IMG/VR virus record: IMGVR_UViG_3300011113_000287
Span: 1-64,000 of that record
DNA: 64,000 nt
Strand: one strand, 5' to 3'
From: a virus
The translations under genes and the position numbers were made by a program. Position 1 is the first letter of the stretch, and every line of letters starts with the position of its first letter. The notes below the pieces were generated by a model. It searched no databases, had not been told where the DNA came from, and saw nothing but the letters and a program-made list of their open reading frames with translations. This document shows, one piece after another, positions 9,997 through 29,770 of the stretch.

Positions 9997-10161
9997 TTAT
10001 TCTTCCTTCTTCAACATTGCGCCCAACATGTGAAAAAACAAGGAAGCGGCGGATATCCAGAGTCCCCATTTCAAGGTTTCTCCACTAAGCGTGATAAGCA
10101 CCATTCCAGTGCCGCCAAGCGTCCAAGCCAGAGCCAGAATCTCATCCACGAATTTCTTCAT
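9997..10161 (-). CDS. 54-aa two-TM membrane protein (not in the ORF track)
   Basis: MKKFVDEILALAWTLGGTGMVLITLSGETLKWGLWISAASLFFHMLGAMLKKEE; ATG overlaps the upstream TAA. Confidence 0.7.
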   Translation of the reverse strand: MKKFVDEILALAWTLGGTGMVLITLSGETLKWGLWISAASLFFHMLGAMLKKEE

Positions 10162-11681
10162 TACTTTCCTTTTTTGCTAGAGGACCCAGATTGTGAGGAA
10201 CTGCTAGTAGGAATGGGTAACGGTGCTACAAATAATACCGCAGTTGCAGCCACTACGGTTCTTCGTTGGGCTACCGAAACGGTAGAACCACTTGGAACAT
10301 AGGTATCAAAGTTTCCACTAAAAACGTCTACGTTTTCTTCAAAGGCTTCTTTTACTTCGTCTGATGCCGTTTTCAGTCCTTCAAGGATAGCAACAATTTG
10401 CTCCTCAGACAGTTCTTCCTCATCAATGGCGGCAAAGATTGCATCGGCCTGTTCCCCAGTAACTATTGATAGTACTTCTGGACTGGTGGCAAGGGCGAGT
10501 GCCTGTTCTTGCGTTGGCTCGTTTTCTAAAAGGGTTTCAACTATTTCCGTTATTTGCTCATTGTCAAGATTGTCAATAAGTTCTGCAAGTTCTTCGGTAG
10601 TTGCTGTGTCTAGTTCATCAATATCGGGTATGCTATCCAACGATGGTTTTTCTTCTTCTGTTTCCTGTGTTGGGGATGTTTCTTCTGGTGTCGTTTCTTC
10701 TTCTGGCTCTGTTTCGGGTTGAGGCGTTTCAGGCTCAGGTGTCGGCAGAGTCCCAGGGGTTGTCTCCTCTGGCTCAGCGTCTTCTGGCTCAGGAAGAGTT
10801 GTGTCAGGGGGAAGCACTTCCTCCTCAGCAGGCGCAGTAGTTGTTGTTGTTTCTTCGTCTTCTTCTTCAGGTGCCAAAACAGTGGTGCTCGTTGTTGAAG
10901 GCTCTGGAACGGTGGTCTCAGGAACAGAAGAAGTAGTAGTTACGGGCACAACGTAAACGGTTGTTGTAGTCGTTGTTTGAGTAGGTACAAACACCGTAGT
11001 GGTGGTTGTTGTCGTGCTAGTTGTGGTTGTTGAACTGCTTGACGTCGTAGTAGATGGATTTTCTACCTGAGTTGTAGTCGTTGCGATTGTGGTCGTGACA
11101 TCCACAGTCGTACTGGTGGCAGGGACAGTCGTTGTTTGAGCAATGGTAGTAGGCGTCGTCGTTGGGACTGTGGTAGTTTCCTGCCATATCGTCGTTGTCG
11201 TACTTTCTACCGTTGTCGTTGTTGGGATAGTTGTAGTGCTAGGCGGGCTTGTCGTCGTACTCGGCGGTTCTGTCGTCGTAGTCGGAGTAGTTGTAGTAGG
11301 TGCATTGGTTGGCTCCAAGTTGGCGTCAATTATGTACGAAGAACCATACCACGCATCTGGGTTTCCACAACATACCCCAGCACGAAGTTTGTAAGTCCCT
11401 GGTTGTAAGTTTTGTGAGATAAACGAATCTAAACCAAAATAGTCGTCATTTGCAGCAATTAAAGTATTTGTTGGGCTGTACAACCACAACATTGAATCAA
11501 TCCTAAACTCTTGTGCGTAAGTGCGGATAGTCAACGTTTGTTCAGTTGTAATTTCAAAATAAAAATCACGATTGTTTTGAGTTGCTGTGTATGTGGCAGC
11601 CGTCACAGTGCCTGGAGCAAACCAACTGAATACGGCAACAATCCAAAATATCCATGCGCCTTTATGACGAGCACGACGCAT
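10161..11681 (-). CDS. Exported, membrane-anchored protein with PPC-like domain and Thr/Pro-rich mucin-like stalk
   Basis: N-terminal signal-like helix, DSMLWLY...ANDD..GLDS..L.PGTY, long Thr tracts, acidic stretch, C-terminal hydrophobic segment. Confidence 0.75.
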   Translation of the reverse strand: MRRARHKGAWIFWIVAVFSWFAPGTVTAATYTATQNNRDFYFEITTEQTLTIRTYAQEFRIDSMLWLYSPTNTLIAANDDYFGLDSFISQNLQPGTYKLRAGVCCGNPDAWYGSSYIIDANLEPTNAPTTTTPTTTTEPPSTTTSPPSTTTIPTTTTVESTTTTIWQETTTVPTTTPTTIAQTTTVPATSTTVDVTTTIATTTTQVENPSTTTSSSSTTTTSTTTTTTTVFVPTQTTTTTTVYVVPVTTTSSVPETTVPEPSTTSTTVLAPEEEDEETTTTTAPAEEEVLPPDTTLPEPEDAEPEETTPGTLPTPEPETPQPETEPEEETTPEETSPTQETEEEKPSLDSIPDIDELDTATTEELAELIDNLDNEQITEIVETLLENEPTQEQALALATSPEVLSIVTGEQADAIFAAIDEEELSEEQIVAILEGLKTASDEVKEAFEENVDVFSGNFDTYVPSGSTVSVAQRRTVVAATAVLFVAPLPIPTSSSSQSGSSSKKGK

Positions 11682-11762
11682 ACGGCTACAGACCAACAAC
11701 GGGTGACCCGCAGGCCACCCGCTTGGCGAGAAAACTCAGGATACAGTATAACATAACTCTAG

Positions 11763-12254
11763 TTACCCGTAGTGTTCGTTGTATTCGTCCCCGTGTTCAG
11801 TAACCCAGTTGTGCAAATCTTGATGAACGGTTTCTGGCGAAGGCCACTCTTCTGAAGTCATTGGGCTAAAAATACCGTGTTTACTATGGTCAACATAAGA
11901 AACCATGTCTACGGGACCAGCAGTAGGGTGATAAATGTCCATGCTTGCCCCACGGTGAATTCCGTAATAGCCTGACGGGTGAGAAACCCGATAATGGTAA
12001 CCCTCTGTCAAATCTTCGTTAATGTCCAATTTTCCAGGACCTTCTGAATATTTACGAGCAAAAGCCTCCTCAGTTCTGTTCTTCTCAGTTAAAAACATGT
12101 GTTCAGAATCGTGAAACCCCTCGGCTTGGGCAAGGCTGTTTAAAAGTTGTTCAGCCATCGCTTCCCCACGCTCACGTGCAGCGGCCCGCCGTATTCTTTC
12201 GTTTGCGATACGTTCGTTATTGTGACCAGAATCAAAATGTTCATTCCTGCTCAT
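11763..12254 (-). CDS. Hypothetical acidic protein
   Basis: 163-aa ORF. Confidence 0.65.
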   Translation of the reverse strand: MSRNEHFDSGHNNERIANERIRRAAARERGEAMAEQLLNSLAQAEGFHDSEHMFLTEKNRTEEAFARKYSEGPGKLDINEDLTEGYHYRVSHPSGYYGIHRGASMDIYHPTAGPVDMVSYVDHSKHGIFSPMTSEEWPSPETVHQDLHNWVTEHGDEYNEHYG

Positions 12255-12585
12255 TGTTGTTACCTTGTTGTCTTTGCATACGTCGTTGAAATTGTTTTAA
12301 ACTTTCGTTTTTTCGGGGAAAGTCCATTCCAACGCTTCTGTGTGCTTTACGCATCTCTCCTTCAAAATTGTTGGCGCCACGACCACCACCGCTAGTACCA
12401 GCCGCATTTACAATCCCGTCATCTTTAATATATATCTGAACGTGTCCTTTAGATGTCTGTCTAGCAATCATTGGGTGACCGCCAGAAATGGCTCTCTGTA
12501 AAATCTCACGAAAATCCTTATCTTGGAAAACACCATGCGCTGATTTTTCAGTAAGTTTATGCTGGTCCCAGTTAATATTATCCAT
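12241..12585 (-). CDS. HicA-like fold protein with N-terminal tag (MDNINWDQH)
   Basis: TSKGHVQI...AGTSGGGRGANNFEGEMRK resembles phage HicA-like proteins. Confidence 0.5.
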   Translation of the reverse strand: MDNINWDQHKLTEKSAHGVFQDKDFREILQRAISGGHPMIARQTSKGHVQIYIKDDGIVNAAGTSGGGRGANNFEGEMRKAHRSVGMDFPRKNESLKQFQRRMQRQQGNNNEQE

Positions 12586-12593
12586 TCCACCCA

Positions 12594-12755
12594 TTAGTAA
12601 ACTCCTTCGCAACAAGCATCACGGTTTCCACAGTCTGGGCAACGATAATGAGCATGTTCTTGGCGCATTTGCGCCCCGCAATGAATGCATTGCGTAGACA
12701 TATCGGCAATATCAATTTTGCAACATATATCTGTGCGTTCAACTTCAATAGACAT
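12594..12755 (-). CDS. Small Zn-finger protein
   Basis: CIHC...CPDC, DACCEG. Confidence 0.6.
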   Translation of the reverse strand: MSIEVERTDICCKIDIADMSTQCIHCGAQMRQEHAHYRCPDCGNRDACCEGVY

Positions 12756-12913
12756 CACGGACCAACTCTCATTGTTACTTCCCATGCCCCGTTGCCAACT
12801 TTGTCTACTTTTACAAGGTACATTGATTTAAACCCCTGGGCAGCGGCCTGCTGCTTGGCTATGGCAATGGCGTCAGCCATTGACTGAGTAAACACGGGAA
12901 ACTTAACAACCAT
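12755..12913 (-). CDS. Hypothetical 52-aa protein
   Basis: MVVKFPVFTQS...; divergent from the PhyH gene. Confidence 0.5.
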   Translation of the reverse strand: MVVKFPVFTQSMADAIAIAKQQAAAQGFKSMYLVKVDKVGNGAWEVTMRVGP

Positions 12914-12931
12914 TATACTTAATTCTACACC

Positions 12932-13708
12932 ATGAACACCACATTGAACGACCTCACAATTGCCGCACCAGCACCAAGCAAGGCCGATTGGAATGATGAT
13001 GGCTTTGTCATCAAGAAAAAGTTTATTCCCGAAGATTTGATGGAAGCCTATGAAGAATGTTGGCTTCGTAACAACATAACTAGACCACGTGGATGGGATT
13101 ATTGCACCCCATACAGAGACCATAAAGAAGTGCTTGACATCCTTTCATACAAGGGATTACACGACACGATGGAAGAGTTGATTGGAGAACCTGCTGGTGT
13201 CCATCTCAACCTTACTGGGTGGGTGACGACTACACGTGACTGGCATCAGGATACATACTTAAATCCTCCGCACGTAGGCGATTACTACGTGGCGGTGTGG
13301 ATTGCGTTGGAGACTATTCACCCAGACTCTGGCCCATTTCAAATGATTCCTGGTTCGCATCGTTGGCCCGTTGTCACGCAGGATAAGATTCTTGCCGCAC
13401 TTGAACCACACGAGCGAAACCATCTCTGGCCTACGCACAGCGAGCGAATCTTGACACCGTTATTTACAGAAGAGATTGCAAAAAGGAATGCTAAAATTTG
13501 TACGCACCTACCAGAACGTGGAGACGTTCTATTTTGGCATGGACGACTGCTTCACCGTGGCTCTCTCGCCAATGTTCCCGACAAACGACGCAAATCGTTA
13601 ATTGCCCACTATTCAGGAATAAATCACCGACAGGATATGCCGCCTGCAAGAAAATACAAAAACGGTTGGTACTTTCCTGTTGATGACGGCAACAAAAGCC
13701 TGATGTAA
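12932..13708 (+). CDS. PhyH-family 2OG-Fe(II) dioxygenase
   Basis: WHQD (HxD), VWIALE...GPF..IPGSH, GDVLFWHGRLLHRG. Confidence 0.9.
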   Translation: MNTTLNDLTIAAPAPSKADWNDDGFVIKKKFIPEDLMEAYEECWLRNNITRPRGWDYCTPYRDHKEVLDILSYKGLHDTMEELIGEPAGVHLNLTGWVTTTRDWHQDTYLNPPHVGDYYVAVWIALETIHPDSGPFQMIPGSHRWPVVTQDKILAALEPHERNHLWPTHSERILTPLFTEEIAKRNAKICTHLPERGDVLFWHGRLLHRGSLANVPDKRRKSLIAHYSGINHRQDMPPARKYKNGWYFPVDDGNKSLM

Positions 13709-13709
13709 A

Positions 13710-14195
13710 TTACTTCTTTTTGTTAGGGTCTTTCCACTCAGTGTCGGAAGGAAGGTTCCTGTTTTTGGAAACCGTTTGCGACAAATTGACAAGTCCCTTG
13801 ACGTAATCTTCACTGGAGCGACCACCGCCAGTTGCTTCTTGGCGCTTGCCCTCACGCTTGTAGCGTTTGTCTGCCGCTTCTGCGCCACCAGTCAACTGTT
13901 CAATCAATGCCGACATCTGTGTGGCATCGGGGTTTAACTCCACTGGAAGATTGGCTGGCAATCCTAACAACGACAAGCCTTCGTTGCGAAGCGCCACATC
14001 CTCCATGCGTTCGCTGAACTTACCTTTGTCCCAATCAAACGACGCCATCAACGCAAACAACCCACGGTGGTAATTGACAGGGTTTTGGGTTTGACGCCCA
14101 ACCTCACGTGTGATGCCAGATGTTCCCTGCATCGCACCAGTAGACGCCGCATTTTGAGCGTCAAAATTAGATTCGTCACCTTGCTTGTCAGCCAT
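13710..14195 (-). CDS. Hypothetical protein
   Basis: 161 aa; leaderless -10 TAAACT 6 nt upstream of ATG. Confidence 0.65.
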   Translation of the reverse strand: MADKQGDESNFDAQNAASTGAMQGTSGITREVGRQTQNPVNYHRGLFALMASFDWDKGKFSERMEDVALRNEGLSLLGLPANLPVELNPDATQMSALIEQLTGGAEAADKRYKREGKRQEATGGGRSSEDYVKGLVNLSQTVSKNRNLPSDTEWKDPNKKK

Positions 14196-14209
14196 AGTTC
14201 TAGTTTACC

Positions 14210-14824
14210 TCATGCCGTAGTGTCTGTAATAATTGTATCAAATTGTGGCTTTTGGTCAAAATCTTCTGGATACCAGTATTGAGTATTGACTTTGTACCGT
14301 GGGCGGTCTCCCCACTTAGGCATACCCACGGTAAACGAGGGGTCATGTACCAACATGCGATTTCCAGGAAGCGTTGCTAGATGCCCACACTCAAGCCAAA
14401 TAAAATTAAAGTGTTTGTGTTGGTCGGGTGTGCGTGAATAAGTATCATCGTAAGGTGCAGCAGTAAACCAGTAATGTCCTTTTTCCCAAGAACCCTTTAG
14501 GTACGCCCTGACTGATAGTTCGGACAAAGCGCCAAACTCCTCAACTCCAAAGTCCTGACCGTAGCATGACCAAACTTGAAGTTCCCCAAGTTGATGGTTG
14601 TGAGAACTTTTACCGTCCTTGAGAAACGCATGTACGGGCAAATGTTGAACAAGTGCCCCATTGGACAACAACGCCGAAATACCCCACGCTCTGTTTGGCA
14701 GGGCAGAAAGACCGTAAAGCAGGGCTGGCGTTACTTCACCATGTCCTTCTTGCATGTCGTACAGAAATTCGTTTTTAACATACGCATACATTGGACGAGG
14801 GATACTCGCAATGTGATTAGGCAT
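14210..14824 (-). CDS. Hypothetical phage protein
   Basis: 204 aa, translationally coupled. Confidence 0.7.
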   Translation of the reverse strand: MPNHIASIPRPMYAYVKNEFLYDMQEGHGEVTPALLYGLSALPNRAWGISALLSNGALVQHLPVHAFLKDGKSSHNHQLGELQVWSCYGQDFGVEEFGALSELSVRAYLKGSWEKGHYWFTAAPYDDTYSRTPDQHKHFNFIWLECGHLATLPGNRMLVHDPSFTVGMPKWGDRPRYKVNTQYWYPEDFDQKPQFDTIITDTTA

Positions 14825-15321
14825 TATTTTGGTCGGTAAATATCCCTAGGGTCTTCTGCATCTGGGTCAATGGTAAACTCACCCTCAGCAAAAAGGTCTA
14901 ACTGTTGCCCTGCTTCGTGCATTCTTTTTGCACCACGTCGTAGACGGTCCATTGCTGCCTGTTTGAATTGGTCGTGGGCTAACTGTTCTTCAACCCGTCG
15001 TTTTTCTTGCTCTTTGGGTGTTCGGTGAGACATGGGAAGTAATCCCATAGAACGTGCTGCGTACGGAGAATACACGTTGATTGTTGTTTCGTCTGCTGAT
15101 GAATCATCTACAACAACGTGTGTGCCGTGCCGCCTTCCTGCTTCAGTTGCAAAATGATGGAGGCGGTTTTCTAGTTCGTCTTCCCAACCCTGTGGATTTT
15201 GCTTTACCAAATCTTGCTGTACATCATTAAAATGAGAAATATACGTTCCAAGAGCGTCTGTTCCATGAAACTCATCGTTAGGGTCTTGCTCAGTGTGTAC
15301 CTTAAGTTTTATGTCTTTCAT
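14824..15321 (-). CDS. Hypothetical protein with QLDLF clamp-binding-like motif
   Basis: GQQLDLFAE near the C-terminus; internal LAHDQF. Confidence 0.65.
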   Translation of the reverse strand: MKDIKLKVHTEQDPNDEFHGTDALGTYISHFNDVQQDLVKQNPQGWEDELENRLHHFATEAGRRHGTHVVVDDSSADETTINVYSPYAARSMGLLPMSHRTPKEQEKRRVEEQLAHDQFKQAAMDRLRRGAKRMHEAGQQLDLFAEGEFTIDPDAEDPRDIYRPK

Positions 15322-15512
15322 CAGTCTGGTCCTGTCAGTCCTTTAGGATAATGTTGAGCCTGGTATTTAATAACTCTTTCACCTTTTGAATTGACCCCGT
15401 ACACGGTGGTGATAAACGCTTTGCGGTCTTCTGACCAATGCGTAATTTTGTCTGTAATGTACGGATTGTACGGGTCTCCTTGATGTCGGTTAATGTGTTC
15501 TGCGGCTGGCAT
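15321..15512 (-). CDS. Tagged small protein (MPAAEHINRHQ)
   Basis: Coupled to both neighbours. Confidence 0.65.
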   Translation of the reverse strand: MPAAEHINRHQGDPYNPYITDKITHWSEDRKAFITTVYGVNSKGERVIKYQAQHYPKGLTGPD

Positions 15513-15673
15513 CAATCGTCCCAATCATCCAGCATGTACCAAATCTTAGTAAAGTCAGGATTTTCAGGAACAAACACAAAGTCAAGCGGTTCCAAATCAG
15601 GGTCCATCAACTCATTTTTTAAGTGTTGAATGGGGTCTGGTTGGCTAAATTGATTGGCGTTAATGTATGCCAT
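15512..15673 (-). CDS. Tagged 53-aa acidic protein (MAYINANQF; not in the ORF track)
   Basis: Manual translation; fills the gap exactly with 1-nt overlaps at both ends. Confidence 0.65.
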   Translation of the reverse strand: MAYINANQFSQPDPIQHLKNELMDPDLEPLDFVFVPENPDFTKIWYMLDDWDD

Positions 15674-16032
15674 TATTTTTCTTTCATTGGTTCAATGTGC
15701 CGAGTGATGTAAGAAGCAGGTATATCCTGCGAGGAGTATGTGTCCATTCCGTAACTGCTTTGTATCCAATCTGTTGGAATACTTGTTTCAATAATATGTT
15801 TTCCATCTTTATGAGCATTTTTAAGTTCAAAAAGGCTAGTTGTTCCATAGGCACCCCATGGTCTTACTTGAGTCGCTTTTTCTTCGGGTGTTTCTGAGAC
15901 TCCCGTAGGATTGGCAGAAATACCATTTTTCATTAAGTCTTTAACCATTTTCTTTGTCCCAACAATAAAGTAATACTTTTCAAATTGTTCTGGGTGCAGA
16001 GGTTTTTCGTTCCCACTGTTTTGGTCAGACAT
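15673..16032 (-). CDS. Tagged protein (PLHPEQF), possible degenerate ART-fold
   Basis: VGT..MVKDLMKNGI...YSSQDIPASYI resembles the ART/Tpt1-like pattern but lacks the catalytic His. Confidence 0.5.
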   Translation of the reverse strand: MSDQNSGNEKPLHPEQFEKYYFIVGTKKMVKDLMKNGISANPTGVSETPEEKATQVRPWGAYGTTSLFELKNAHKDGKHIIETSIPTDWIQSSYGMDTYSSQDIPASYITRHIEPMKEK

Positions 16033-16079
16033 GGCAGTCAAGTATACACTATGCGTTATTGATGTAAAATAGTAAGAGC

Positions 16080-16811
16080 ATGGCTCGTTATTTTGGAAAC
16101 ATTGAAGCACAACGCCCTGGTGGTGAGGCTGACCAGACAGCACATTACCTTACTGGGGGCAACAGCAAGAACGTATTTGACCCACGAAAAGACCCTGGTA
16201 GCAGATACATACACATGACTGCCATTGGTAAGGAAAGTGAACAGTATCCAGGCGACTACGAAAGCGCCACGATAGGCGGTGTGTATTATCCAGAGGATTA
16301 CACTTTGGGACCATCGCACGATACTCCAGACGAAACGGGGACGCTGTTTACGCACCATCCTCCCACGATTTACATTAACGAAGCATTTGCCCATCCAAAC
16401 CTTCGTCACACGGTCCCCATCATGTTTTCCCACATGCACAGGCATTTGGGCGGGCAATTTGAACCAGACGAGATGCTTTCTGACTACAGTGTAGATTTGT
16501 ACCACAAAGCCAAAAAACTTGGATTACCAGTTCGCACTCCAAAATGGGCTGAAGACGACGACGACGAAGTTGGCGCTACTTTTCACTATGACTACGACCC
16601 AGACAACATAGACGCCGACCACATGCTCACTACAATTCCAGACACAGGTGACGATTCATGGACCAAAGAAATACCAGCACCTGAAATAGAAAAATCAAAG
16701 CAACATTACCGCAATTTACGGCGAACGGCACGTGACGAACAAATGCGTAATGTCCTCAATCCAAATCCGTATTTTGGTCCACAGTTTGAACAATTACAAT
16801 TTGATATCTAA
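16080..16811 (+). CDS. Hypothetical protein, possible GNAT-like fold, C-terminal FGPQF
   Basis: INEAFAHPNLR...LSDYS; -10 TAAAAT upstream. Confidence 0.55.
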   Translation: MARYFGNIEAQRPGGEADQTAHYLTGGNSKNVFDPRKDPGSRYIHMTAIGKESEQYPGDYESATIGGVYYPEDYTLGPSHDTPDETGTLFTHHPPTIYINEAFAHPNLRHTVPIMFSHMHRHLGGQFEPDEMLSDYSVDLYHKAKKLGLPVRTPKWAEDDDDEVGATFHYDYDPDNIDADHMLTTIPDTGDDSWTKEIPAPEIEKSKQHYRNLRRTARDEQMRNVLNPNPYFGPQFEQLQFDI

Positions 16812-17359
16812 TGAGCGCAGCCGACCACATCAACGAGGCGCAGAAATTGCGTGTATTTCACATGTCATGGCAAGAACAGCCTCCGCACTTGTTTAGGGAA
16901 GGAAGAGACAGCGAGGGAAGAGAAGGGGACGACGACAACGTGCATCCTGACGTAATTCACGCAGGAACACGTCGCTCGGCTTTGGGTATTCACCGAACGC
17001 AATTACATGAGTATGAAATTGACCCAGACGTAGTAGACCCAGTAGTTTATGGTGATGTGCAGTATCTAATGGACGCTCAAGAACGAATTCCAGATAGGTG
17101 GCAGTCCAAAGAGTTCACTAAGAAAATGAGCGGAAAACAGCAAGGACTGTGGGAAACTATTCCAGGTAAGCCGTCCGACGCAGTAAATCGCAACGTCGTT
17201 CTACCGTACCGAAACTACGCAGAAGATGTTGGAAGCATTTCGTACATGATTCCAAAGTCACTCATTGAGCAGGGAAAAGTAAGACACGTTGGAGTGGTAG
17301 ATGTGAGCAAAGGTGGTATTCGTAGGACACTTGAACAAAAAGAAGGAATGTACCGTTAA
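16811..17359 (+). CDS. Tagged protein (MSAADHINEAQ), ART-like
   Basis: VFH...IHAGT..SA...PYRN..ED.GSISY pattern. Confidence 0.5.
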   Translation: MSAADHINEAQKLRVFHMSWQEQPPHLFREGRDSEGREGDDDNVHPDVIHAGTRRSALGIHRTQLHEYEIDPDVVDPVVYGDVQYLMDAQERIPDRWQSKEFTKKMSGKQQGLWETIPGKPSDAVNRNVVLPYRNYAEDVGSISYMIPKSLIEQGKVRHVGVVDVSKGGIRRTLEQKEGMYR

Positions 17360-17372
17360 TACTTATTGAGTA

Positions 17373-18065
17373 TTAGTCATCCTCACCATCTGGTCCAGAT
17401 GTGTCGTTTGGATACTTGTCTTTCCAAGACCACGGGGTCAACGCTTCTGTAGCAATGTCGTATTGGTACAAATCAAAACCTGTGTTTCCCTGTGAAGAAT
17501 TGCGTTTAAAAAGTCCTACTGTTATTTTGCTAGGATGTGTTATGAGAGAAGACCTTCTGTTTTGTTGATGCTCTCTGTGCTCTTGAACGGACATGTCATT
17601 ATAACTTTCGTGCTTGTTGTGAGACCAACCATGTGTTGGTTCCGACGCCCACTCTTTCATGCTTTCATGCAAAGCCTGTTGCTCACGAGGACGAAAATAT
17701 ATACCATTTGAATCGTTTACATCGTGTATTTCTTGTCCTTTATGGGGCATCCATCCATAACGACCCCACGCATCAGAATCAGAAGTGTCTATAACTGGTT
17801 TTTTAAGGTAATGTTCCAAATGTGTGCCATTTTCACCAACCGCAGACCACCCGCCTACTATCAAACCGTTTTCAAGAGGCACTATATGATGTGCATTGAA
17901 ACTTTTAGAAATGTCGCCAAATGCAGTTTCTCTGAGAAATAAACCTTTTTCTATTGCTGGGTATGCTTTATCAAAGATAACGACACCCCTTGGGTGCGTA
18001 AGGTCAACACCTCTTTGTTTGTACGTTCGCAACGTTTCTTGGACGCCTTTAAAAAGTTCAGACAC
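17373..18065 (-). CDS. Hypothetical protein
   Basis: Likely GTG start just after the methyltransferase stop. Confidence 0.6.
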   Translation of the reverse strand: MSELFKGVQETLRTYKQRGVDLTHPRGVVIFDKAYPAIEKGLFLRETAFGDISKSFNAHHIVPLENGLIVGGWSAVGENGTHLEHYLKKPVIDTSDSDAWGRYGWMPHKGQEIHDVNDSNGIYFRPREQQALHESMKEWASEPTHGWSHNKHESYNDMSVQEHREHQQNRRSSLITHPSKITVGLFKRNSSQGNTGFDLYQYDIATEALTPWSWKDKYPNDTSGPDGEDD

Positions 18066-18066
18066 G

Positions 18067-18618
18067 TTAAACCCGTTCTGCGTAGATATCAACGTTCAAA
18101 AAGGCGTCAGCGACTGGGTTCCACACGGTGACTTCCTTTGGAGGAATAATACTGCACGGGAATTTGAACGAGGCTTTTTGACTCTTCCATTCTGGTTCGT
18201 CAAACAAGCCCTTCAAACCCTCATCAGTCCATCGGCAATAGTCGGACGGATAACCGTGGACGGGGAAAGTGTGGTGTGTCGCCACGTACAGAATTCCACC
18301 TGGCTTCAGCACACGGTGGGCTGCGGCAGCCGCAATCCACGGCTTACGCAAATGCTCCCAAACGCTCACGGCAATGAACGCATCAAACTCTTGGTCGGCA
18401 AACGGCGCCAAATTGTGGGCATCGGCAACTACGTGCACGTCTGCTCCAGCAGCCACATCGGACATGACGTGTGTAGCGCCCTGCGGAAGCCAAACACCGT
18501 GATGAGTTGATACACCAGGTTTCCATTGCAACGTGCCAAGTTCCAAAACTTTGGGGTTTCTAAGTTGCGATAATTTGTGTACGAAGAGTTCTTGCACTCC
18601 TCCGTCTGTGTCATACAT
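18067..18618 (-). CDS. Class I SAM-dependent methyltransferase
   Basis: KVLELG, DAHNL..F..FD, VWEH, VLKPGG.L, HGYP.DY.RWT. Confidence 0.9.
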   Translation of the reverse strand: MYDTDGGVQELFVHKLSQLRNPKVLELGTLQWKPGVSTHHGVWLPQGATHVMSDVAAGADVHVVADAHNLAPFADQEFDAFIAVSVWEHLRKPWIAAAAAHRVLKPGGILYVATHHTFPVHGYPSDYCRWTDEGLKGLFDEPEWKSQKASFKFPCSIIPPKEVTVWNPVADAFLNVDIYAERV

Positions 18619-18620
18619 GT

Positions 18621-18941
18621 TTATTCAACCTGTCTCAAAAAATATGGCGGTAAATCGTGACCTAACACTTCCCCATTCTCTGACCATTTCCAGTCAGCAG
18701 AATCGGGCAAATCGGCAGCAAATACGGCAGGACCGTATTCCCTTGCTCCTTCTAGTGTAGTTGCAAAATACACACCGTGCGGATGACCAGGTTCAGGGTT
18801 ATTTTCGTTTACGTGCTCGTATCCGTACTCTCCTGCACCAGGAGTGCTGGCTTTTAGTCCCTCTTTAAGGATACTTTCAACGTTGCTATCGTCCGTTCCG
18901 TGATAGTACGTGCGGAATTGGATACGGTTCAGTTTATCCAT
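18621..18941 (-). CDS. ADP-ribosyltransferase-fold protein with tag (MDKLNRIQF)
   Basis: YYHGT...ESILKEGL...GVYFATT...A.EY: H-Y pattern of ART/PARP/Tpt1-like domains. Confidence 0.7.
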   Translation of the reverse strand: MDKLNRIQFRTYYHGTDDSNVESILKEGLKASTPGAGEYGYEHVNENNPEPGHPHGVYFATTLEGAREYGPAVFAADLPDSADWKWSENGEVLGHDLPPYFLRQVE

Positions 18942-19477
18942 TATCGCAGTGTAATCTGTTCTTCGTCGGCAATCCACACAGGAATGAGTTGATTGGTCCT
19001 CATTGCAGCGTACGCACGGTGGTGACCATCAATCAGCAAGTGCCTTGGTGCTGAAACGATTCCTCCCCGCTCGTTTCGTTTCCAGTCGTTTTTGTCAATA
19101 TCAACCAACGACGTGTCTTGCTGATGCTTGGAGATAATCACAGGAGTGCTGACGCCATGTTCTCCCACGGATTTGACTAAATCGTCAATGTCGTACTCCA
19201 CGTTTCCGACAAACCTCTTTTGGGCTTCACGAAGTTGCGGGTTCTTTTCAAAAATAGGATTGTTTTCTTCATGGGCAAGGTAGCGCCAATCATGAACGTA
19301 CTCGCCAGGAGCCACTGATTCAATGAATTGGTCGGGGTGCAGCCATCCTTTTGCCCTAACCCGCATTCGGTCACCCTGCCTCCACACTGGTACGGTTTGG
19401 GCACGACCAGTCCCCATTGCACGGTGAAACCTCTCTATTTCCGCAGGATTAAAATTAGTAAGTTTGCGACGAGGCAT
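18941..19477 (-). CDS. ParB/Srx-like domain protein
   Basis: LVKSVGEHGVSTPVII...LLIDGHHRAYAA; internal LHPDQF. Confidence 0.75.
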   Translation of the reverse strand: MPRRKLTNFNPAEIERFHRAMGTGRAQTVPVWRQGDRMRVRAKGWLHPDQFIESVAPGEYVHDWRYLAHEENNPIFEKNPQLREAQKRFVGNVEYDIDDLVKSVGEHGVSTPVIISKHQQDTSLVDIDKNDWKRNERGGIVSAPRHLLIDGHHRAYAAMRTNQLIPVWIADEEQITLR

Positions 19478-19824
19478 CAGTCAATTCCAGGGCCGAAATC
19501 AACGCCACGAACGGGTTTGGGTGCTCCCTTTTTGAACGTGTAACGCTTACTGAAGCCCATGTCCATACCATGATGCTGCTGGACAATATCCTGAAGAATC
19601 TGCATGTCTTCAGAGGCACCCGCATACTCGCCAGGGTGACGCTGGGAAATGTGCCATGCACGTGTCATGGGATGGTTGAAATCGGCGTTGCAACCACGAA
19701 CCGAGCATCTTAACATGTTGATACTGTAACTGGTTCTCCCGTCTTCGTGAACCACGGGCGGGTCGGTCGGGTCACTGTCGGGATGGGGCGTGTCTTTGAA
19801 CTGGTCACCAGAAGGGAAGGGCAT
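19477..19824 (-). CDS. Tagged C2H2 Zn-finger-like protein (MPFPSGDQF)
   Basis: CSVRGC...F.......HISQRH; leaderless TACAAT. Confidence 0.55.
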   Translation of the reverse strand: MPFPSGDQFKDTPHPDSDPTDPPVVHEDGRTSYSINMLRCSVRGCNADFNHPMTRAWHISQRHPGEYAGASEDMQILQDIVQQHHGMDMGFSKRYTFKKGAPKPVRGVDFGPGID

Positions 19825-19897
19825 TCCTCTATTGTACAATAGTAGGCATGGCTGCAAATGACCGTTACCGCATCATGAAAGAACTTGGATACGACTA

Positions 19898-20143
19898 ATG
19901 GCTTCTTCTGACCACATAAGCGGAAAACAGTTTAGAAAAGTAGGGCCGTACAGGATGATTCGCCACCGAACTGGTCATTGGGAGTCAGAAGACGGCTTTC
20001 ACTTCATCCAGGGCACACCACCGACAAAATTTTGGGACGTTCAAAAAGACCCAGACGTCTACGACCCAGTTTACGAATCCGATGCTTCAAGCCTCGTAAA
20101 CGCCGTTTATCAGTTCAGAAAGTACCAAGAAGAGACAAAGTAA
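19898..20143 (+). CDS. Tagged small protein (MASSDHISGKQF)
   Basis: 81 aa, coupled to the next gene. Confidence 0.7.
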   Translation: MASSDHISGKQFRKVGPYRMIRHRTGHWESEDGFHFIQGTPPTKFWDVQKDPDVYDPVYESDASSLVNAVYQFRKYQEETK

Positions 20144-20514
20144 TGGCTGCCAAGGACCATCTTCAGGGAGAACAGTTGCGAATGTTCATGCGTCCCCACG
20201 AAATCAAGGGCATGATAGGGTCATCAGAGGACATGTTTCATCTTCACAACCCAGATTTGACCGAAGAAGAGCAAAAACAACAGGAAACGATGCCGAATTT
20301 GTGGGCGTTCAAGCGACACCATTGGGGTCCTTGGGAAAAATTGCAGAAATCCGTTGAGAAAGAGGGCGTAGAAAACCCAATTGAGGTCAAAATACCGTCT
20401 CGTATCTTCCCCACTTACAGAATGAGGGAAGGTCATCACCGTGTTATTGCCGCAGAGATGGCAGAAGAAGTCACAAACAAGGAATACTACGTCCCAATCA
20501 CCTATTTACGGTAA
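20143..20514 (+). CDS. Tagged ParB/Srx-like protein (MAAKDHLQGEQL)
   Basis: LQKSVEKEGVENPI...MREGHHRVIAA; start at the TAATG overlap. Confidence 0.75.
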   Translation: MAAKDHLQGEQLRMFMRPHEIKGMIGSSEDMFHLHNPDLTEEEQKQQETMPNLWAFKRHHWGPWEKLQKSVEKEGVENPIEVKIPSRIFPTYRMREGHHRVIAAEMAEEVTNKEYYVPITYLR

Positions 20515-20526
20515 TCAAAACTGAAC

Positions 20527-21060
20527 ATGGCTGCCAAAGACAACCTGCATCAAGCCCAGTTTGAGCAACATATTGCTGATTTTGCCAAAGAAACTGGAGT
20601 ACAAGTGTACGGAACGCATACCGTGGCGGGAAATACCGTCATTCCCACCGTCCGTACGACACTGATGACACGTCAAAAAGACGGGAAACGGCAATACTAC
20701 ATGGAAGCCCATGTGCCAGGACAAGAAGGAAACCTCCACCATTTAACGGTCACGAATTACCATGGACCCACTTTTTACGGTCTTTCCCTGAGCCAAAACG
20801 CCAGGGGAGACGAAAATCTTGATACTCACGATTTGGAAGAGTTTTCTCGTGGCGTACGCCAACATTTGGCAAAGGCAACGGAGTTTCCGCCTTCTGGCGT
20901 CAAACAAGAAAATGAAATCATGAACGAACGTGCCGCCGTACGAGGCCATTACAACGAGTGGCATGAACGAAACAAACTACGAGCAGTGGAAGTCACAGAC
21001 TGGGACACGAACGAACACGCCACTCGTGTGTACGACCCAGTGACTAAGAAATATTTGTAA
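20527..21060 (+). CDS. Tagged hypothetical protein (MAAKDNLHQAQF)
   Basis: 177-aa ORF. Confidence 0.7.
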   Translation: MAAKDNLHQAQFEQHIADFAKETGVQVYGTHTVAGNTVIPTVRTTLMTRQKDGKRQYYMEAHVPGQEGNLHHLTVTNYHGPTFYGLSLSQNARGDENLDTHDLEEFSRGVRQHLAKATEFPPSGVKQENEIMNERAAVRGHYNEWHERNKLRAVEVTDWDTNEHATRVYDPVTKKYL

Positions 21061-21064
21061 CTTA

Positions 21065-21520
21065 GAATAGGGCTACTTGCCCGTTTACGCTGTACCCTGG
21101 AATAGGGCTATTGTGGAGGTGGCGAGGTCCTTAATGAGGGGATTACCCCACCAACCGCTTTTGCCCACGCATCACCTTCAAAAGTCCTGTCAGCAGAATG
21201 TTTAGGAGGGTTCATATCCTCCATGCCTTCTGCTACTTCATGTGCAACATTGAACATTGCCGTAGCAATGCCACGACGACGTAGGCGCTTGGGAACGTAT
21301 ACCCCAGTAATCTCCCCCTCTTGATTCCATGCAAGACTACCCAAGTGCATCCTGCCAAACGAATCATCTATGAAAGCCGTTATTTCATGCTCAGAAGCAC
21401 CTGGCATGACAGGAAAGAAATAGGCGAATTGCCGACCCATGTGGTCTGGACCGTAGTACAACGGTTTTTGCCTTCGTTCCATTTCTACTATTGTACATCG
21501 TTTTTGGAATAGGGCTATTG
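21065..21520. repeat. Direct repeat TGGAATAGGGCTATTG flanking the GNAT gene, plus a partial third copy
   Basis: Copies at 21098-21113 and 21505-21520; GAATAGGGCTA at 21065-21075; core AATAG-GG-CTATT is a dyad. Confidence 0.8.
21108..21482 (-). CDS. GNAT acetyltransferase with tag (PDHMGRQF)
   Basis: ITGVYVPKRLRRRGIATAM (acetyl-CoA motif A), HSADRTFEGDAWA. Confidence 0.8.
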   Translation of the reverse strand: MERRQKPLYYGPDHMGRQFAYFFPVMPGASEHEITAFIDDSFGRMHLGSLAWNQEGEITGVYVPKRLRRRGIATAMFNVAHEVAEGMEDMNPPKHSADRTFEGDAWAKAVGGVIPSLRTSPPPQ

Positions 21521-22043: not shown

Positions 22044-22074
22044 AGTCTGCCACACGGAATACTATCGGTGTCAA
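22044..22074 (-). promoter_or_regulatory. Promoter P1 (19-bp spacer)
   Basis: TTGACA-CCGATAGTATTCCGTGTGG-CAGACT. Confidence 0.8.
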
Positions 22075-22206
22075 ATGCTCCCGTGTGACGTTCGTCACGT
22101 GCCCTACGGTTGGGGCTATGGGTGACGGCGGTCACATGGGTGCGGAATGGGGGTAGGGGTGTGACACTCGTCACGTCCCCACCTATTGCTATCCGTGTGT
22201 CCTGCG

Positions 22207-22443
22207 TCACGCTGTCACCTCGTACCGACTCATGTCCCCTACGGGGAGTGCCACGCCGAACGCTTCCGTCCAGCCACACGCCATGAGGAACGTGTTACGT
22301 ACGAAGCGTGGGTTATCCTCAACGCACATGTCTGCGAACGCATGGCATAACGTCCCCCATGCGAGCACTCCCTCTGGTGTCTCAATGGTATCTAAGTGCT
22401 CTTTGAGCACTAATGCCATCGCCCGATAGTCCTTACGTGTCAT
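22207..22443 (-). CDS. Hypothetical protein (MTRKDY...NPRF)
   Basis: AGGAGG RBS; downstream of P2. Confidence 0.75.
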   Translation of the reverse strand: MTRKDYRAMALVLKEHLDTIETPEGVLAWGTLCHAFADMCVEDNPRFVRNTFLMACGWTEAFGVALPVGDMSRYEVTA

Positions 22444-22464
22444 GATTACTACCTCCTGTGTCCC

Positions 22465-22495
22465 AGACTACTATTGCCCGTACTATCCGTGTCAA
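22465..22495 (-). promoter_or_regulatory. Promoter P2
   Basis: TTGACA-CGGATAGTACGGGCAATAG-TAGTCT; CRP-like site at 22505. Confidence 0.8.
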
Positions 22496-22579
22496 ATGCC
22501 CGTGTGTGACGTGCGTCACGCATGTGCGTGGTCGTGCGCTCGTGCGTGGTCGCCCGTGTGGTCGCACCTGTGTGGTCGG

Positions 22580-22894
22580 TCACTTCCACGTGGGGTTACC
22601 TGCCCTCGTCATCACGACGTACACTACGTCGTTCCATACCTTGCGCCGTGCTTTCATGCCTCGCAGGTCGTGTGCCTCCACCTTCCATTGGATAGGCTCG
22701 TTGTCGTCCATCTCCACGTCTCCGACGAACGTGTCGTAGTGCGTCCAGCCCCTACCTCCCGTGTCGGCATCGTTGTCGTCGTCAATGAGTTCGTAGAACT
22801 CGTCCTCCGACATGGTGTCGTACCAGCACCCCCCGTCATTGACACGCTTGGGCGAGCCATCGGGGTTCGTGCGTACTGTGCTAATCGTTGTCAT
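22580..22894 (-). CDS. Hypothetical acidic protein
   Basis: MTTISTVR start after AGGAGG; downstream of P3. Confidence 0.7.
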   Translation of the reverse strand: MTTISTVRTNPDGSPKRVNDGGCWYDTMSEDEFYELIDDDNDADTGGRGWTHYDTFVGDVEMDDNEPIQWKVEAHDLRGMKARRKVWNDVVYVVMTRAGNPTWK

Positions 22895-23108
22895 TCTTGC
22901 CTCCTGCCCCCAGCGTAACATTCGCCGTACTATCGGTGTCAAGCCCACGTGTGTGACGCTTGGCACGCCTACGTGCGTGTGTGGTCGTGCGTGTGGTCGT
23001 CCCCGTAGCCTCACGGTGATTACGACGGGTACACTTGCCACATACCTTGTGTGCGGTGAACGCCACCATCATGTCGCTGGTGTCTCCGCATTGTGAGCAC
23101 GGGGTCAT
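22881..23108 (-). CDS. Small Zn-finger protein
   Basis: CSQC...CGKC; the C-terminal tail reads through regulatory DNA. Confidence 0.5.
   Translation of the reverse strand: MTPCSQCGDTSDMMVAFTAHKVCGKCTRRNHREATGTTTRTTTHARRRAKRHTRGLDTDSTANVTLGAGGKNDND
22912..22942 (-). promoter_or_regulatory. Promoter P3
   Basis: TTGACA-CCGATAGTACGGCGAATGT-TACGCT; CRP-like site at 22952. Confidence 0.8.
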
Positions 23109-23416
23109 GAGATAGCCTCCTCGTCCATGTCGTCGTCGTCGTCCATCGCAAGGTTGGGGAAGTAGGTGACGGTTGCGTTGCGCCCCATGCTGTCTTGCCT
23201 ATTCCACGTGTCCACCAGCATGGTGAGCGTGTCACGCTCGTCCATGTCCATGAGATTACGGGCAAGTGCCAGCAAGCACTTCACGGGGTCATCGCTCACG
23301 ATGCCCAGACATGACTTGCCGTACATGTTGCGCCCTGAGTAGGCACGGACTTCGCCGTCCCCGTTGAGGGCTGTCTCAATGTTGCTTATCTGTTCGTCGG
23401 TCAGTTTCGTTGTCAT
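23105..23416 (-). CDS. Hypothetical protein (YSGRxMYGxxC type)
   Basis: Leaderless start 6 nt after the -10 of P4. Confidence 0.75.
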   Translation of the reverse strand: MTTKLTDEQISNIETALNGDGEVRAYSGRNMYGKSCLGIVSDDPVKCLLALARNLMDMDERDTLTMLVDTWNRQDSMGRNATVTYFPNLAMDDDDDMDEEAIS

Positions 23417-23422
23417 GTCCCC

Positions 23423-23453
23423 AACTTATCATTCGCAATACTATCGCCGTCAA
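23423..23453 (-). promoter_or_regulatory. Promoter P4
   Basis: TTGACG-GCGATAGTATTGCGAATGA-TAAGTT; CRP-like site at 23463. Confidence 0.8.
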
Positions 23454-23515
23454 GTGCTTTCGTGTGACACACGTCACTTACGCATGCGTGCGTGTGGTCG
23501 TAGTGTGTGTGGTCA

Positions 23516-23917
23516 TTAGTGACAACGTATCCACTCAACGGGGTTCTCCCGATAGTACCTGTCCCGTCGCTCGCACGCCAGCCGATACACTTCGTCCTCG
23601 TACGCCTTGTAGTACGCCCGTGCCCACGCTCGCACCTCCCATTGGAGCACGTACCTTTCGGGCATCTCCTTGCCATACGTCTCCTGCCACGCCTCAATGG
23701 GGTTGGGCATGTCTGCCTCCCATGCGAGTGTGCCCCCGATGTGGGCATGGATAATGTGGTTCAGGGCTTCCATGCTCATGTCCCCTATCTCGTGGAACAG
23801 GTCATGGTAGGCATGTGCCGTACCGACGATGCGTCCCCATTCGTTCCATTCGTGTCTGTGCTTCTCCCACGTGTCCTCGTACGTGTGCGTGTGGTCGTCC
23901 GTGCGTGTGGTCGTCAC
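23516..23917 (-). CDS. Hypothetical protein
   Basis: GTG start overlapping the upstream stop, GAGG RBS. Confidence 0.65.
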   Translation of the reverse strand: MTTTRTDDHTHTYEDTWEKHRHEWNEWGRIVGTAHAYHDLFHEIGDMSMEALNHIIHAHIGGTLAWEADMPNPIEAWQETYGKEMPERYVLQWEVRAWARAYYKAYEDEVYRLACERRDRYYRENPVEWIRCH

Positions 23918-24207
23918 TTCGCCACCTCGCTCGTTGCCAACATCTCCACGCTGGGGAAGTAGTCGGGGTAATGGTTCTCCCAACAGTCGTCGTTAGCGTC
24001 CTCCCATGACTGAATGTAAAGCGTGCCGTCCTTGCCCTCGCCGTCCCACTCCGTAGCCTCCAATGCCACGTGTGCCACGTCGTCGGTGTGTGTGGGCTTG
24101 CGAACGGACACGATGACGTGTGCCCCGTCCCATGCTTCGCCTTCCTCCAACACTACTTTAACTACCGTAATGCCACCTGTCTTGTGAGTAATGTGTGTCG
24201 TTGCCAT
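23914..24207 (-). CDS. Hypothetical protein
   Basis: AGGAGG RBS; downstream of P5. Confidence 0.7.
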   Translation of the reverse strand: MATTHITHKTGGITVVKVVLEEGEAWDGAHVIVSVRKPTHTDDVAHVALEATEWDGEGKDGTLYIQSWEDANDDCWENHYPDYFPSVEMLATSEVAK

Positions 24208-24225
24208 TAGTTGCCTCCTACCGCA

Positions 24226-24256
24226 ACAGTATCATTAACACTACTATCGGTGTCAA
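24226..24256 (-). promoter_or_regulatory. Promoter P5
   Basis: TTGACA-CCGATAGTAGTGTTAATGA-TACTGT; CRP-like site at 24266. Confidence 0.8.
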
Positions 24257-24272
24257 GCGTGGTCATGTGACG

Positions 24273-25028
24273 TTAGTCACCCCACCATTCGCTGCTCGTG
24301 GTGTTACCGTGCTCGTCGTACCTGCGAGGCTGGTCAAGTTCTGCGATAGTCTCCAATGCGTACTCGTTGCCTGAGTAATACTCAATGGTGGCGTAGCCTG
24401 CCCTTGCCATCTCCCTACACAACGTCCGTATCTCGTCGTTCATGGTGTCCATCGCCTCCCACAACGCCCGTTCGTCGGCGGTCATGCGGTCACGGGACTT
24501 CTCAGTCATGGCGATGAAGTATCCATTCATTACTGCCGTCCCGTTGGCGGTGGAATAGCCCACCTCGTCGCCGTCCTCGTTGTAGTAGTGGATAGTGAAC
24601 GAACTTTCGTGGGGATAACTATTATCGCCCACGAAGTCGGCGTAGCGAATACCCTCGCCCCACGTAAGTGCCTTCGCTTCGTCGGCGTACAACTTGCCCC
24701 GAACGCTTGCCCCGTCTCCCTGACAGTACCCCAGCGAGTACGTCACACGGAAACCGTTGCGGTTCTTGTGGTCGCCTTCTGCGAACAACCTGCGCCACGA
24801 ATAGGACGTACCGTCGTGGTCGTCGCTTCCCGTTGCCCTGCGAATGAACACGTCTTGTAACGTCTCCACGATGTGCTCGTCGTTCATGTGTATGTAGTTG
24901 TACGAACGAACGTCCTCAACTACTTTCTGTTGTGCTTCCTTAGACAGTTCTGCGAACGTGTAAACGTAGCGAGAACGTGTCACCAATGTGTTTATCTCAT
25001 GTTGCGTTGTGGTCATGTTGTCCTCCAT
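24273..25028 (-). CDS. Hypothetical protein (VYTFxEL...YSLGYCQGDGAS)
   Basis: 251 aa; downstream of P6. Confidence 0.75.
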   Translation of the reverse strand: MEDNMTTTQHEINTLVTRSRYVYTFAELSKEAQQKVVEDVRSYNYIHMNDEHIVETLQDVFIRRATGSDDHDGTSYSWRRLFAEGDHKNRNGFRVTYSLGYCQGDGASVRGKLYADEAKALTWGEGIRYADFVGDNSYPHESSFTIHYYNEDGDEVGYSTANGTAVMNGYFIAMTEKSRDRMTADERALWEAMDTMNDEIRTLCREMARAGYATIEYYSGNEYALETIAELDQPRRYDEHGNTTSSEWWGD

Positions 25029-25034
25029 GCCCTA

Positions 25035-25065
25035 ACCTTATCATCTGGAATACTATCGCTGTCAA
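25035..25065 (-). promoter_or_regulatory. Promoter P6
   Basis: TTGACA-GCGATAGTATTCCAGATGA-TAAGGT; CRP-like site at 25075. Confidence 0.8.
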
Positions 25066-25085
25066 GCGGTGTTATGTGTCCGTTG

Positions 25086-25586: not shown

Positions 25587-25608
25587 GTGGTCGTATCCTC
25601 CTGTTGTC

Positions 25609-25639
25609 AATGTATCACACGAACTACTATCGGTGTCAA
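25609..25639 (-). promoter_or_regulatory. Promoter P7
   Basis: TTGACA-CCGATAGTAGTTCGTGTGA-TACATT. Confidence 0.8.
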
Positions 25640-25654
25640 GTCGTGTGGTCGTTG

Positions 25655-26119: not shown

Positions 26120-26123
26120 GTGG

Positions 26124-26384: not shown

Positions 26385-26401
26385 GTTGTCCTCCTAGTTG
26401 G

Positions 26402-26432
26402 AATGTACCACACGGGTTACCATCGGTGTCAA
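26402..26432 (-). promoter_or_regulatory. Promoter P8
   Basis: TTGACA-CCGATGGTAACCCGTGTGG-TACATT. Confidence 0.8.
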
Positions 26433-26433
26433 G

Positions 26434-27906: not shown

Positions 27907-27907
27907 G

Positions 27908-28057: not shown

Positions 28058-28074
28058 TCTTGCCTCCTGCTTAC

Positions 28075-29504: not shown

Positions 29505-29505
29505 G

Positions 29506-29751: not shown

Positions 29752-29770
29752 GTCATTACCTCCAAACGAC

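Follow-up and report, generated by a model that had tools for sequence, protein, structure and literature searches.

The internal proteins of T-even phages are diverse, and the capsid-targeting sequence (CTS) is the sole feature common to them (PMC3012670). Here we describe a tag of 8–12 residues, with the consensus MAA[KS]DH[LI]xxxQF, which dozens of small, mutually unrelated enzymes of a phage genome and its relatives carry at their N-termini. The tag was noticed in an island of genes within IMG/VR virus record IMGVR_UViG_3300011113_000287, positions 1 to 64,000 of which form the window, i.e. the whole stretch of DNA (64,000 nucleotides) that was analysed. Like this tag, the CTS of phage T4, which is carried by the internal proteins IPI-III and by Alt and belongs to the hypervariable IP locus, consists of about ten N-terminal residues placed on unrelated, fast-changing proteins of a hypervariable locus. 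An ADP-ribosyltransferase (ART) is among the cargo in both cases (here as a candidate), and the T4 genes stand among late genes as the tagged genes stand next to virion genes. The CTS differs in that its sequence, which we take to be MKTYQEFIAE, is dissimilar to the tag; moreover, the tag has no terminal protease cleavage motif, its motif also occurs at C-termini, and neither a prohead protease of the T4 type nor a core was found here.

Three other groups of proteins invite comparison. MuF-anchored polymorphic toxins and polyvalent phage proteins were reportedly described in 2017 by Iyer, Burroughs, Anand, de Souza and Aravind and by Jamet et al. Polyvalent and MuF effectors (ParB/Srx, ART and others) have been proposed to travel with the DNA. 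They have the same repertoire of effector domains as the tagged set and the same logic of a conserved delivery module combined with variable enzymes, whereas in the tagged set each domain stands as a small protein of its own that bears a 10-residue peptide and has no MuF or portal-binding fusion. Bacterial motifs that bind the beta sliding clamp (QL[SD]LF, QLxLxL) are, like the tag, short peptides at a protein end in which a hydrophobic residue comes after an invariant Gln; most tags deviate from them, however, and in the ParB-like proteins the segment that does fit is predicted by modelling to be a buried strand. The N-terminal packaging signals on payloads of extracellular contractile injection systems (eCIS, such as PVC and Afp) are longer and poorly conserved, and the cargo peptides of encapsulins are usually C-terminal. 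Both resemble the tagged set in that unrelated proteins, encoded beside the structural genes of a contractile or HK97-fold particle, carry a short terminal peptide, a loading signal in those systems; the encapsulin consensus is a different one, and the tag described here belongs to a DNA phage, in which the tape measure protein presumably occupies the tail tube.

A portable peptide on unrelated proteins

The window covers the first 64 kb of a circular genome of 92,155 bp (terminal overlap 127 bp), which codes for an HK97-type major capsid protein, an SPP1-type portal, a large terminase and matches to tail-fibre and virion-structural families, together with a replication and recombination set (RecA, a DnaB-type helicase and SNF2 helicases) and two WhiB look-alikes, as judged by eye. 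The nearest cultured major capsid proteins are those of the Streptomyces phage BRock group (61% identity), and there are hundreds of related contigs in IMG/VR. The source is probably a myovirus-like phage of Actinobacteria, and the tag-bearing phages are probably an uncultured freshwater actinobacterial group. We compared the genome with 13 related IMG/VR genomes or large fragments (14 genomes in total, cited below by G numbers where necessary), with gene starts assigned by a simple script. G008 is 99% complete, the tag-bearing G009 and G014 are fragments, and the record of G013 is only 73% complete, with 60 of its 69 kb included in the comparison. The complete tag-less genomes, G004 and G005, were counted as a single lineage because they have many families in common that occur in no other genome; tests of co-occurrence therefore have low power, with only 14 genomes and the complete tag-less ones reduced to one lineage. 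The island had no match among cultured phages by megablast, single-protein scans of IMG/VR found nothing, and an IMG/VR search with an exact DNA pattern for MAAKDH.xxxQF returned only one relative.

The pattern M[APS][AS][AKS][DE][HN][IL]xxxQ has five matches in the six-frame translation of the entire genome, and all five are starts of open reading frames (ORFs) between 15.5 and 20.5 kb (the first five genes of Table 1). Four or five neighbouring genes begin with shorter forms (MxxLNxxQF, MPxPxGxQF), and the short-form classes MxxLNxxQF and MPxPxGPQF were found again in related genomes. Thus the earlier observation that unrelated neighbours on both strands share an N-terminal pattern has held, and the enrichment test that accompanied it, N-terminal motifs against shuffled controls, gave a clear excess: over the 14 genomes, strict regular expressions matched 49 of 5598 ATG starts near an upstream stop, against about 5 expected on shuffling residues 2–17. 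The same expressions matched 9 of 7288 internal ATGs. Curation led to 61 tagged proteins from 10 of the 14 genomes, the bodies of which fall into 35 clusters by BLASTP after removal of the first 14 residues. The Gln is invariant and lies most often at residue 11 (21 cases), 8 (14) or 10 (10); the residue after it is F in 41 and L in 12 curated tags (F, L or Y in 55/60), often followed by R or K. The tagged proteins have no bias in isoelectric point.

Codon usage within the tag indicates the level at which it is conserved. Among 18 strict-class tags from several genomes, the first and second codon positions of the conserved residues have a pairwise identity of 1.0, while third positions range from 0.22 to 0.48, and the DNA upstream of the tags is conserved at background level except for the T/A of TAATG stop-start overlaps. 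Since the upstream DNA is unrelated and synonymous positions differ, conservation acts on the peptide. At the level of gene comparison, therefore, the tag is shown to be portable and under protein-level selection on unrelated, fast-changing accessory enzymes, and we consider a portable, unstructured docking tag with a long form, M-[AS]-A-[KS]-[DE]-[HN]-[IL]-x2-3-Q-[FL], and the short forms MxxLNxxQF and MPxPxGxQF to be the best explanation of these data.

Three simpler origins were rejected. A DNA-level repeat or a cassette of promoter and start is ruled out by the unconserved third codon positions and upstream DNA, and chance by the specificity of the strict matches, the excess over shuffling and the clustering in one block. 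A homologous N-terminal domain of paralogues is ruled out for most of the proteins by the 35 BLASTP clusters and at least three folds; in the proteins starting at 19898 and 15512 a longer common N-terminal region is possible.

Table 1. Tagged genes, other genes and regulatory sequences of the island, with the early-type promoters beyond it (window positions)
Feature	Position	Strand	Remarks
177-aa protein, fold unassigned	20527..21060	+	tag MAAKDNLHQAQF
123-aa ParB/Srx-fold protein	20143..20514	+	tag MAAKDHLQGEQL, joined straight to predicted strand 1 (RMFM)
81-aa protein	19898..20143	+	tag MASSDHISGKQF
182-aa ART-fold-like protein, family f60	16811..17359	+	tag MSAADHINEAQK
63-aa protein	15321..15512	-	tag MPAAEHINRHQG
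53-aa protein	15512..15673	-	short tag MAYINANQF (class N)
106-aa candidate PARP-like ADP-ribosyltransferase	18621..18941	-	short tag MDKLNRIQF just before RTYYHGT
114-aa protein, phrog_2089 (no assigned function)	12241..12585	-	tag variant MDNINWDQH
115-aa protein	19477..19824	-	MPFPSGDQF, MPxPxGxQF class
GNAT-like protein	21108..21482	-	PDHMGRQF at residues 12-19, or MGRQF from ATG 21440
119-aa protein, weak candidate	15673..16032	-	KPLHPEQF at residues 10-17
163-aa protein	11763..12254	-	start MSRNEHFDSGH
243-aa M[AP]RYFK-family protein	16080..16811	+	motif at C-terminus, YFGPQFEQLQFDI
Second ParB/Srx-like protein, 178 aa	18941..19477	-	N-terminus untagged; GHHR motif aligned
PhyH dioxygenase	12932..13708	+	untagged; PF05721, E 1.4e-17
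S-adenosylmethionine methyltransferase	18067..18618	-	untagged; PF08241, E 4.5e-12
Box at head of island	21507..21518	-	ATAGCCCTATTC; further copies 21100-21111(-), 21065-21076(-)
14-bp palindrome	19829..19842	.	CTATTGTACAATAG; between divergent 19824(-) and 19898(+)
Early-type promoters, 13 copies	22061-36028	-	TTGACACCGATAGT; most followed by a GGAGG-type ribosome site in the leader
Tag peptide, example form			MAAKDHLQGEQF

Tagged proteins and their relatives

Orthologues from related genomes retain the tag under changes of form. Those of the 20527 protein (P0002 and P0003, 53–60% identity) keep [HN]-L-x3-Q-F-E-Q-H in the starts MPNLNKHQF and MRHLNQEQF; the small ART candidate has an orthologue in G002 that begins MASLNPHQFRTYYHGT, and the phrog_2089 protein has orthologues in G006 and G012 that begin MGTEENLNWDQH and MGTEQHLNWDQH. 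The MPxPxGxQF class recurs in G002, G007 and G008 and in family f60. Five homologues of the GNAT-like protein, from G002, G003 and G012, have four different tag forms at Met1, and the forms of this cluster are MGRQF, MSASEHLNRYQL, MPARNNLNNYQF, MSAKNSLNAIQF, MPIFGPQF and MAAKDNINGVQF. The 163-aa protein is possibly a degenerate relative, with an E-H-F-x3-H start; the corresponding start is MARNENFDKDH in its G002 orthologue and MSRNEAFNSGH in that of G007, the latter being the first gene after the box pair described below. The start codon of the 81-aa protein overlaps (TAATG) the stop of a 15-codon ORF, MAANDRYRIMKELGYD, at 19851-19898. A different N-terminal motif, M-x-x-(x)-DHRGRP[LV]H, was seen on small proteins at 51335-51658 of the window, at 25380-25706 of G005 and at 10239-10652 of G008, where the gene lies inside the Q-F island; D-H is common to this motif and the tag.

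The 20143 protein belongs to a very large family. Its AlphaFold2 (AF2) model has a mean predicted local distance difference test (pLDDT) score of 86.9, with a mean of 50 over residues 1–10 and RMFM (residues 13–16) forming strand 1, and the top Foldseek matches are all ParB, KorB, Noc or sulfiredoxin (probability up to 1.0, E 3e-3). A GxxR-type motif, DGHHR, is nearly invariant in the alignment of this type. A profile of the small ParB/Srx proteins matched 1935 representative clusters (E <= 0.001), of which 817 also pass the stricter threshold of E <= 1e-10. Most of the best 150 clusters begin with M[AS]A[SK]DH[LIV]xxxQL; 99 of them have the strict long tag and most of the others have variants such as MPTPNGPQFEQLKMFM. 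Ten clusters that were looked up are metagenomic, with uninformative names, and the ESM Atlas holds viral clusters plus one from Actinomycetota. A tblastn search of cultured phages with the ParB-like protein found no match.

In family f60 the tag is present in some members and missing from others. The AF2 model of the 16811 protein is mediocre (pLDDT 62.7, below 50 for residues 1–9, with a strand at 13–19), and its top Foldseek matches, RES, diphtheria toxin and ParT, are ART-fold toxins, all weak (E 0.015–0.1). The profile search returned 209 proteins; among the best 120 of them, 37 have a Q-F tag, about a dozen begin MAASDHI[HN]PxI without Q-F, and 62 start directly at strand 1 (MGKIVYHGT). 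Tagged and tag-less subfamilies occur together in single islands of G007 and G008, and tag-less paralogues of tagged proteins exist. Comparison of these families shows that many small enzymes without common ancestry of their bodies, of ParB/Srx, ART-like, GNAT-like and unassigned folds, have gained the tag, exchanged one form of it for another, or lost it. The two AF2 models suggest a flexible extension that leads directly into the first strand of different folds.

The motif also has a C-terminal version. In nine M[AP]RYFK-family members the last residues read ...H[ML]SxQF...LPG[MI][ED]GF or ...EQ[LM]xLPGI, including ...QHMSPQFKDVPLPGMDGF and ...SEQLTLPGI, so the YFGPQF proposed earlier for the window member is backed by its family and the tag can be said to occur at either protein end. 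Paralogues lie at 36203 and 37715 in G001, 80561-82952 in G002, 54247-55089 and 58275-58934 in G003, and 79179-79907 in G007; their C-terminal tails look disordered, and the EQ[LM]xLPGI ends resemble C-terminal clamp-binding hexapeptides.

The other assignments of the first-pass annotation fared unevenly. Tagged relatives back its short forms MAYINANQF, MDKLNRIQF, MDNINWDQH and MPFPSGDQF, and the metabolic genes of the island, PhyH and the methyltransferase, are indeed untagged. The GNAT-like start is borne out by the orthologues tagged at Met1, though in the window the motif lies inside the protein unless translation starts at 21440, and the GNAT assignment itself is borderline (PF00583, 20.5 bits against a cut-off of 20.7). 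ParB/Srx cargo was claimed twice: the 20143 protein is confirmed by GHHR, AF2 and Foldseek, while the second protein is ParB/Srx-like by GHHR and untagged N-terminally, its supposed tag WLHPDQF aligning with the body of the ParB domain. For ADP-ribosyltransferase cargo there is weak backing, from a PF00644 match of the 106-aa protein (E 4.2e-5, below cut-off) and from the Foldseek matches of f60. KPLHPEQF is a weak case, with zero orthologues among the 14 genomes; QLAHDQF and KLGDQF found no support as internal or C-terminal tags in any analysis, nor did HicA-like cargo, and the Zn-ribbon protein at 12594-12785 carries no tag.

The block leading into the tail-fibre genes

Every relative has a different island. 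Both landmarks of a block that runs from a pair of DNA boxes to the tail-fibre genes are present in eight genomes; this block takes up 11% of the genome and contains 46 of their 49 tagged genes (binomial P 5e-40). Downstream of the island are virion structural or tail-fibre genes and TerL. In some genomes the junction is close: the orthologue of the phrog_2089 gene overlaps by 4 nt (G012) or precedes by 18 nt (G006) the first conserved gene of the operon that continues into the tail-fibre genes; in G007 the gap from a tagged gene to the following gene of such an operon is 15 nt. Between island and tail-fibre genes of the window (10161-11699) there is also a protein of 512 aa whose start resembles a signal peptide and whose linkers, rich in Thr/Pro/Glu, are very long, and which had no Pfam or PHROG match; counterparts of 334–666 aa with a similar hydrophobic start occupy the same place in relatives and do not cluster with it by BLASTP.

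The box has the consensus [AG]TAGCCC[TC]A[TA][TAC]C. Nine relatives have it as a pair where the block begins (for example 59947/59904(-) in G003 and 89543/89499(-) in G002), with a spacing of 43–65 bp, 43–44 bp in 8 of 9 pairs; G004 has a single box, and three relatives have one extra exact copy elsewhere. In the window genome one box stands before the GNAT-like gene and two after it, 35 bp apart. The heading boxes always have the same orientation as the conserved genes that continue into the tail-fibre genes and lie 6–15 kb upstream of them, in the complete tag-less G004 and G005 too. The last bases of the proximal box are TATACT or TATTCT, which resemble a -10 element, and the first ATG follows after 6–7 nt (six genomes) or 12–16 nt (G008, G014). 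The box pair is probably the promoter and operator of the island and tail-fibre block.

None of the 13 early-type promoters of the window lies within the island. The early-promoter word of the window genome is not conserved in the relatives, and therefore this timing cannot be transferred to them. Stop-start overlap or abutment is found in 68% of island genes, and Shine-Dalgarno sequences in 16% of them versus 47–66% elsewhere. In the window the island is rearranged into short divergent units with TACAAT or TATACT 6–8 nt ahead of the ATG; around the palindrome of Table 1, TACAAT lies 6–7 nt before the ATG on either strand. Gene order thus shows that the tagged enzymes sit in a hypervariable block joined transcriptionally to virion genes, apart from the early promoter class, and from the same order we infer late synthesis.

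Possible functions of the tag

We tentatively propose that the tag may be a virion-loading signal for the proteins that carry it, in the manner of the T4 CTS, a function that is possible rather than likely. The tagged proteins would be made alongside virion proteins, the tag would address them to a single common receptor, most likely the assembling particle, and they would be carried with the DNA into the next host, as are the T4 internal proteins and Alt. A virion-loading tag predicts that tagged genes should lie in the block leading to the tail-fibre genes and not behind early promoters, as they do, and the types of cargo match known injected proteins. A more specific version, in which the tag is an uncleaved 10-residue cargo-loading code that would act at either protein end and lead to co-injection of swappable ParB/Srx, ADP-ribosyltransferase, acetyltransferase and other enzymes without T4's prohead protease and core, we regard as rather doubtful.

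Capsid targeting with co-injection was also the proposal of the first-pass annotation, and the portable tag, its use at either end and its place in a block that runs into virion genes remain on its side. A number of results weigh against it. Besides the lack of likeness to the T4 CTS, no conserved cleavage motif follows Q-F in the curated tags, no recognisable prohead protease family was found in the head module, and the MuF domain (PF04233) had zero matches in the whole genome, in a search where positive controls matched. Over the 14 genomes no gene family, whether structural or not, varies together with the tag in the manner expected of a receptor, and the first 50 kb of Streptomyces phage BRock, from the group of cultured relatives, contain zero tags. 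The box-pair promoter looks like a leaderless one of host sigma-A type, late timing is read from gene order, and island proteins may be of low abundance, as Shine-Dalgarno sequences are mostly absent. The tag joins the folded domain without a linker. Finally, 8 of the 14 genomes have a gene for a proteasome-beta-like N-terminal nucleophile (Ntn) hydrolase, which we therefore count as optional and which is absent from the tag-bearing G008, G009 and G014.

Two further candidates were considered and set aside. The hydrolase gene (L002:7524-8153, genome 87524-88153, beyond the window; start MTTIVGIQ; PF00227, E 2.4e-7) sits between a metallophosphatase-like gene and the portal gene, and its role as protease or receptor of the tag is unsupported, given that it is missing from three tag-bearing records. 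A small acidic protein encoded after the major capsid gene, MAKKSNQFAEP, is ruled out as a tagged head protein, as its orthologues have EF, VF, SF or IF at this place.

The common partner may instead be cytoplasmic, with the tag docking the enzymes on a hub of the host, for example the beta sliding clamp, RNA polymerase or a chaperone, or on a hub protein of the phage; such docking would concentrate host-modifying enzymes at one site. We consider it conceivable, with considerable reservation, and about as likely as loading into the virion. The behaviour of the tag is that of a short linear motif, i.e. unstructured, at either terminus and with variable spacing. For the clamp in particular, the consensus is Q-phi-x-[LM]-[FL] or Q-phi-x-[LM]-x-[FL] (10.64898/2026.09.19.751633), which the ParB-like members fit with QL[RSKAQ][ML]F (QLRMF, QLSMF, QLKLF) and which the M[AP]RYFK ends EQLxLPGI or QLQFDI resemble; among phage proteins there is a precedent from Mu, a protein reported to use such a motif (PMC12867686). 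However, the consensus fits only the ParB-like subset and a few others, most tags lack hydrophobic residues at Q+3 and Q+4, and in the ParB-like model RMFM is predicted to form the first strand of the fold rather than a free peptide. The half that lies upstream of Q, the conserved MAASDH[IL], has no counterpart in clamp-binding motifs, and it survives in the Q-F-less variant MAASDHIHPYIKAYH. Nor does a location upstream of tail-fibre genes, outside the region of early promoters, suggest early take-over of the host.

It is unlikely that the tag is a recognition sequence for a modifying enzyme, a protease or a degron system that would time the activity or removal of the proteins, for instance by Q|F cleavage that bares a destabilising Phe, Leu or Tyr. 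The invariant Q with its F, L or Y would suit such an enzyme, and the proteasome-like hydrolase could be thought of in this role; yet the hydrolase has the gaps noted above and is present in the partial G013, where no tag was found, a Q-F-less variant of the tag exists, and no family shows the distribution expected by analogy with leaders of ribosomally synthesised and post-translationally modified peptides (RiPPs), namely presence in all tag-bearing genomes with absence from tag-less ones. Co-occurrence does not support the two metabolic enzymes of the island as modifiers of the tag either: PhyH is present in 6/14 genomes, which leaves it unlinked to the tag, and the methyltransferase of the window is a singleton in the clustering. 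Most improbable is a functionless relic, the native N-terminus of the ParB/Srx family spread by illegitimate recombination at gene starts and tolerated since, because, although the tag is the conserved N-terminus of that very large family and stop-start overlaps could favour cassette exchange at the ATG, its residues are kept over 35 body clusters and divergent genomes while synonymous sites are randomised, several distinct forms are each maintained, and a C-terminal version exists.

Under either virion loading or hub docking, the tagged proteins form a coherent, previously unannotated gene class, with at least 35 body families in addition to the large ParB/Srx family, and the box-pair promoter that heads the tail-fibre block is a conserved regulatory unit. 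Docking on a hub, if true, would mean that dozens of enzymes are aimed at one target, which would be worth identifying. If the tag is a virion-loading signal, unrelated, ecologically abundant actinophages would share with T4 the principle of internal proteins that bear an address, and there would be a very short handle for the packaging of foreign proteins. The tag would also provide a sequence rule for injected counter-defence and take-over enzymes in metagenomes, so that the injected proteins of this uncultured group, including the ParB/Srx family of 817 clusters, would become predictable from sequence.

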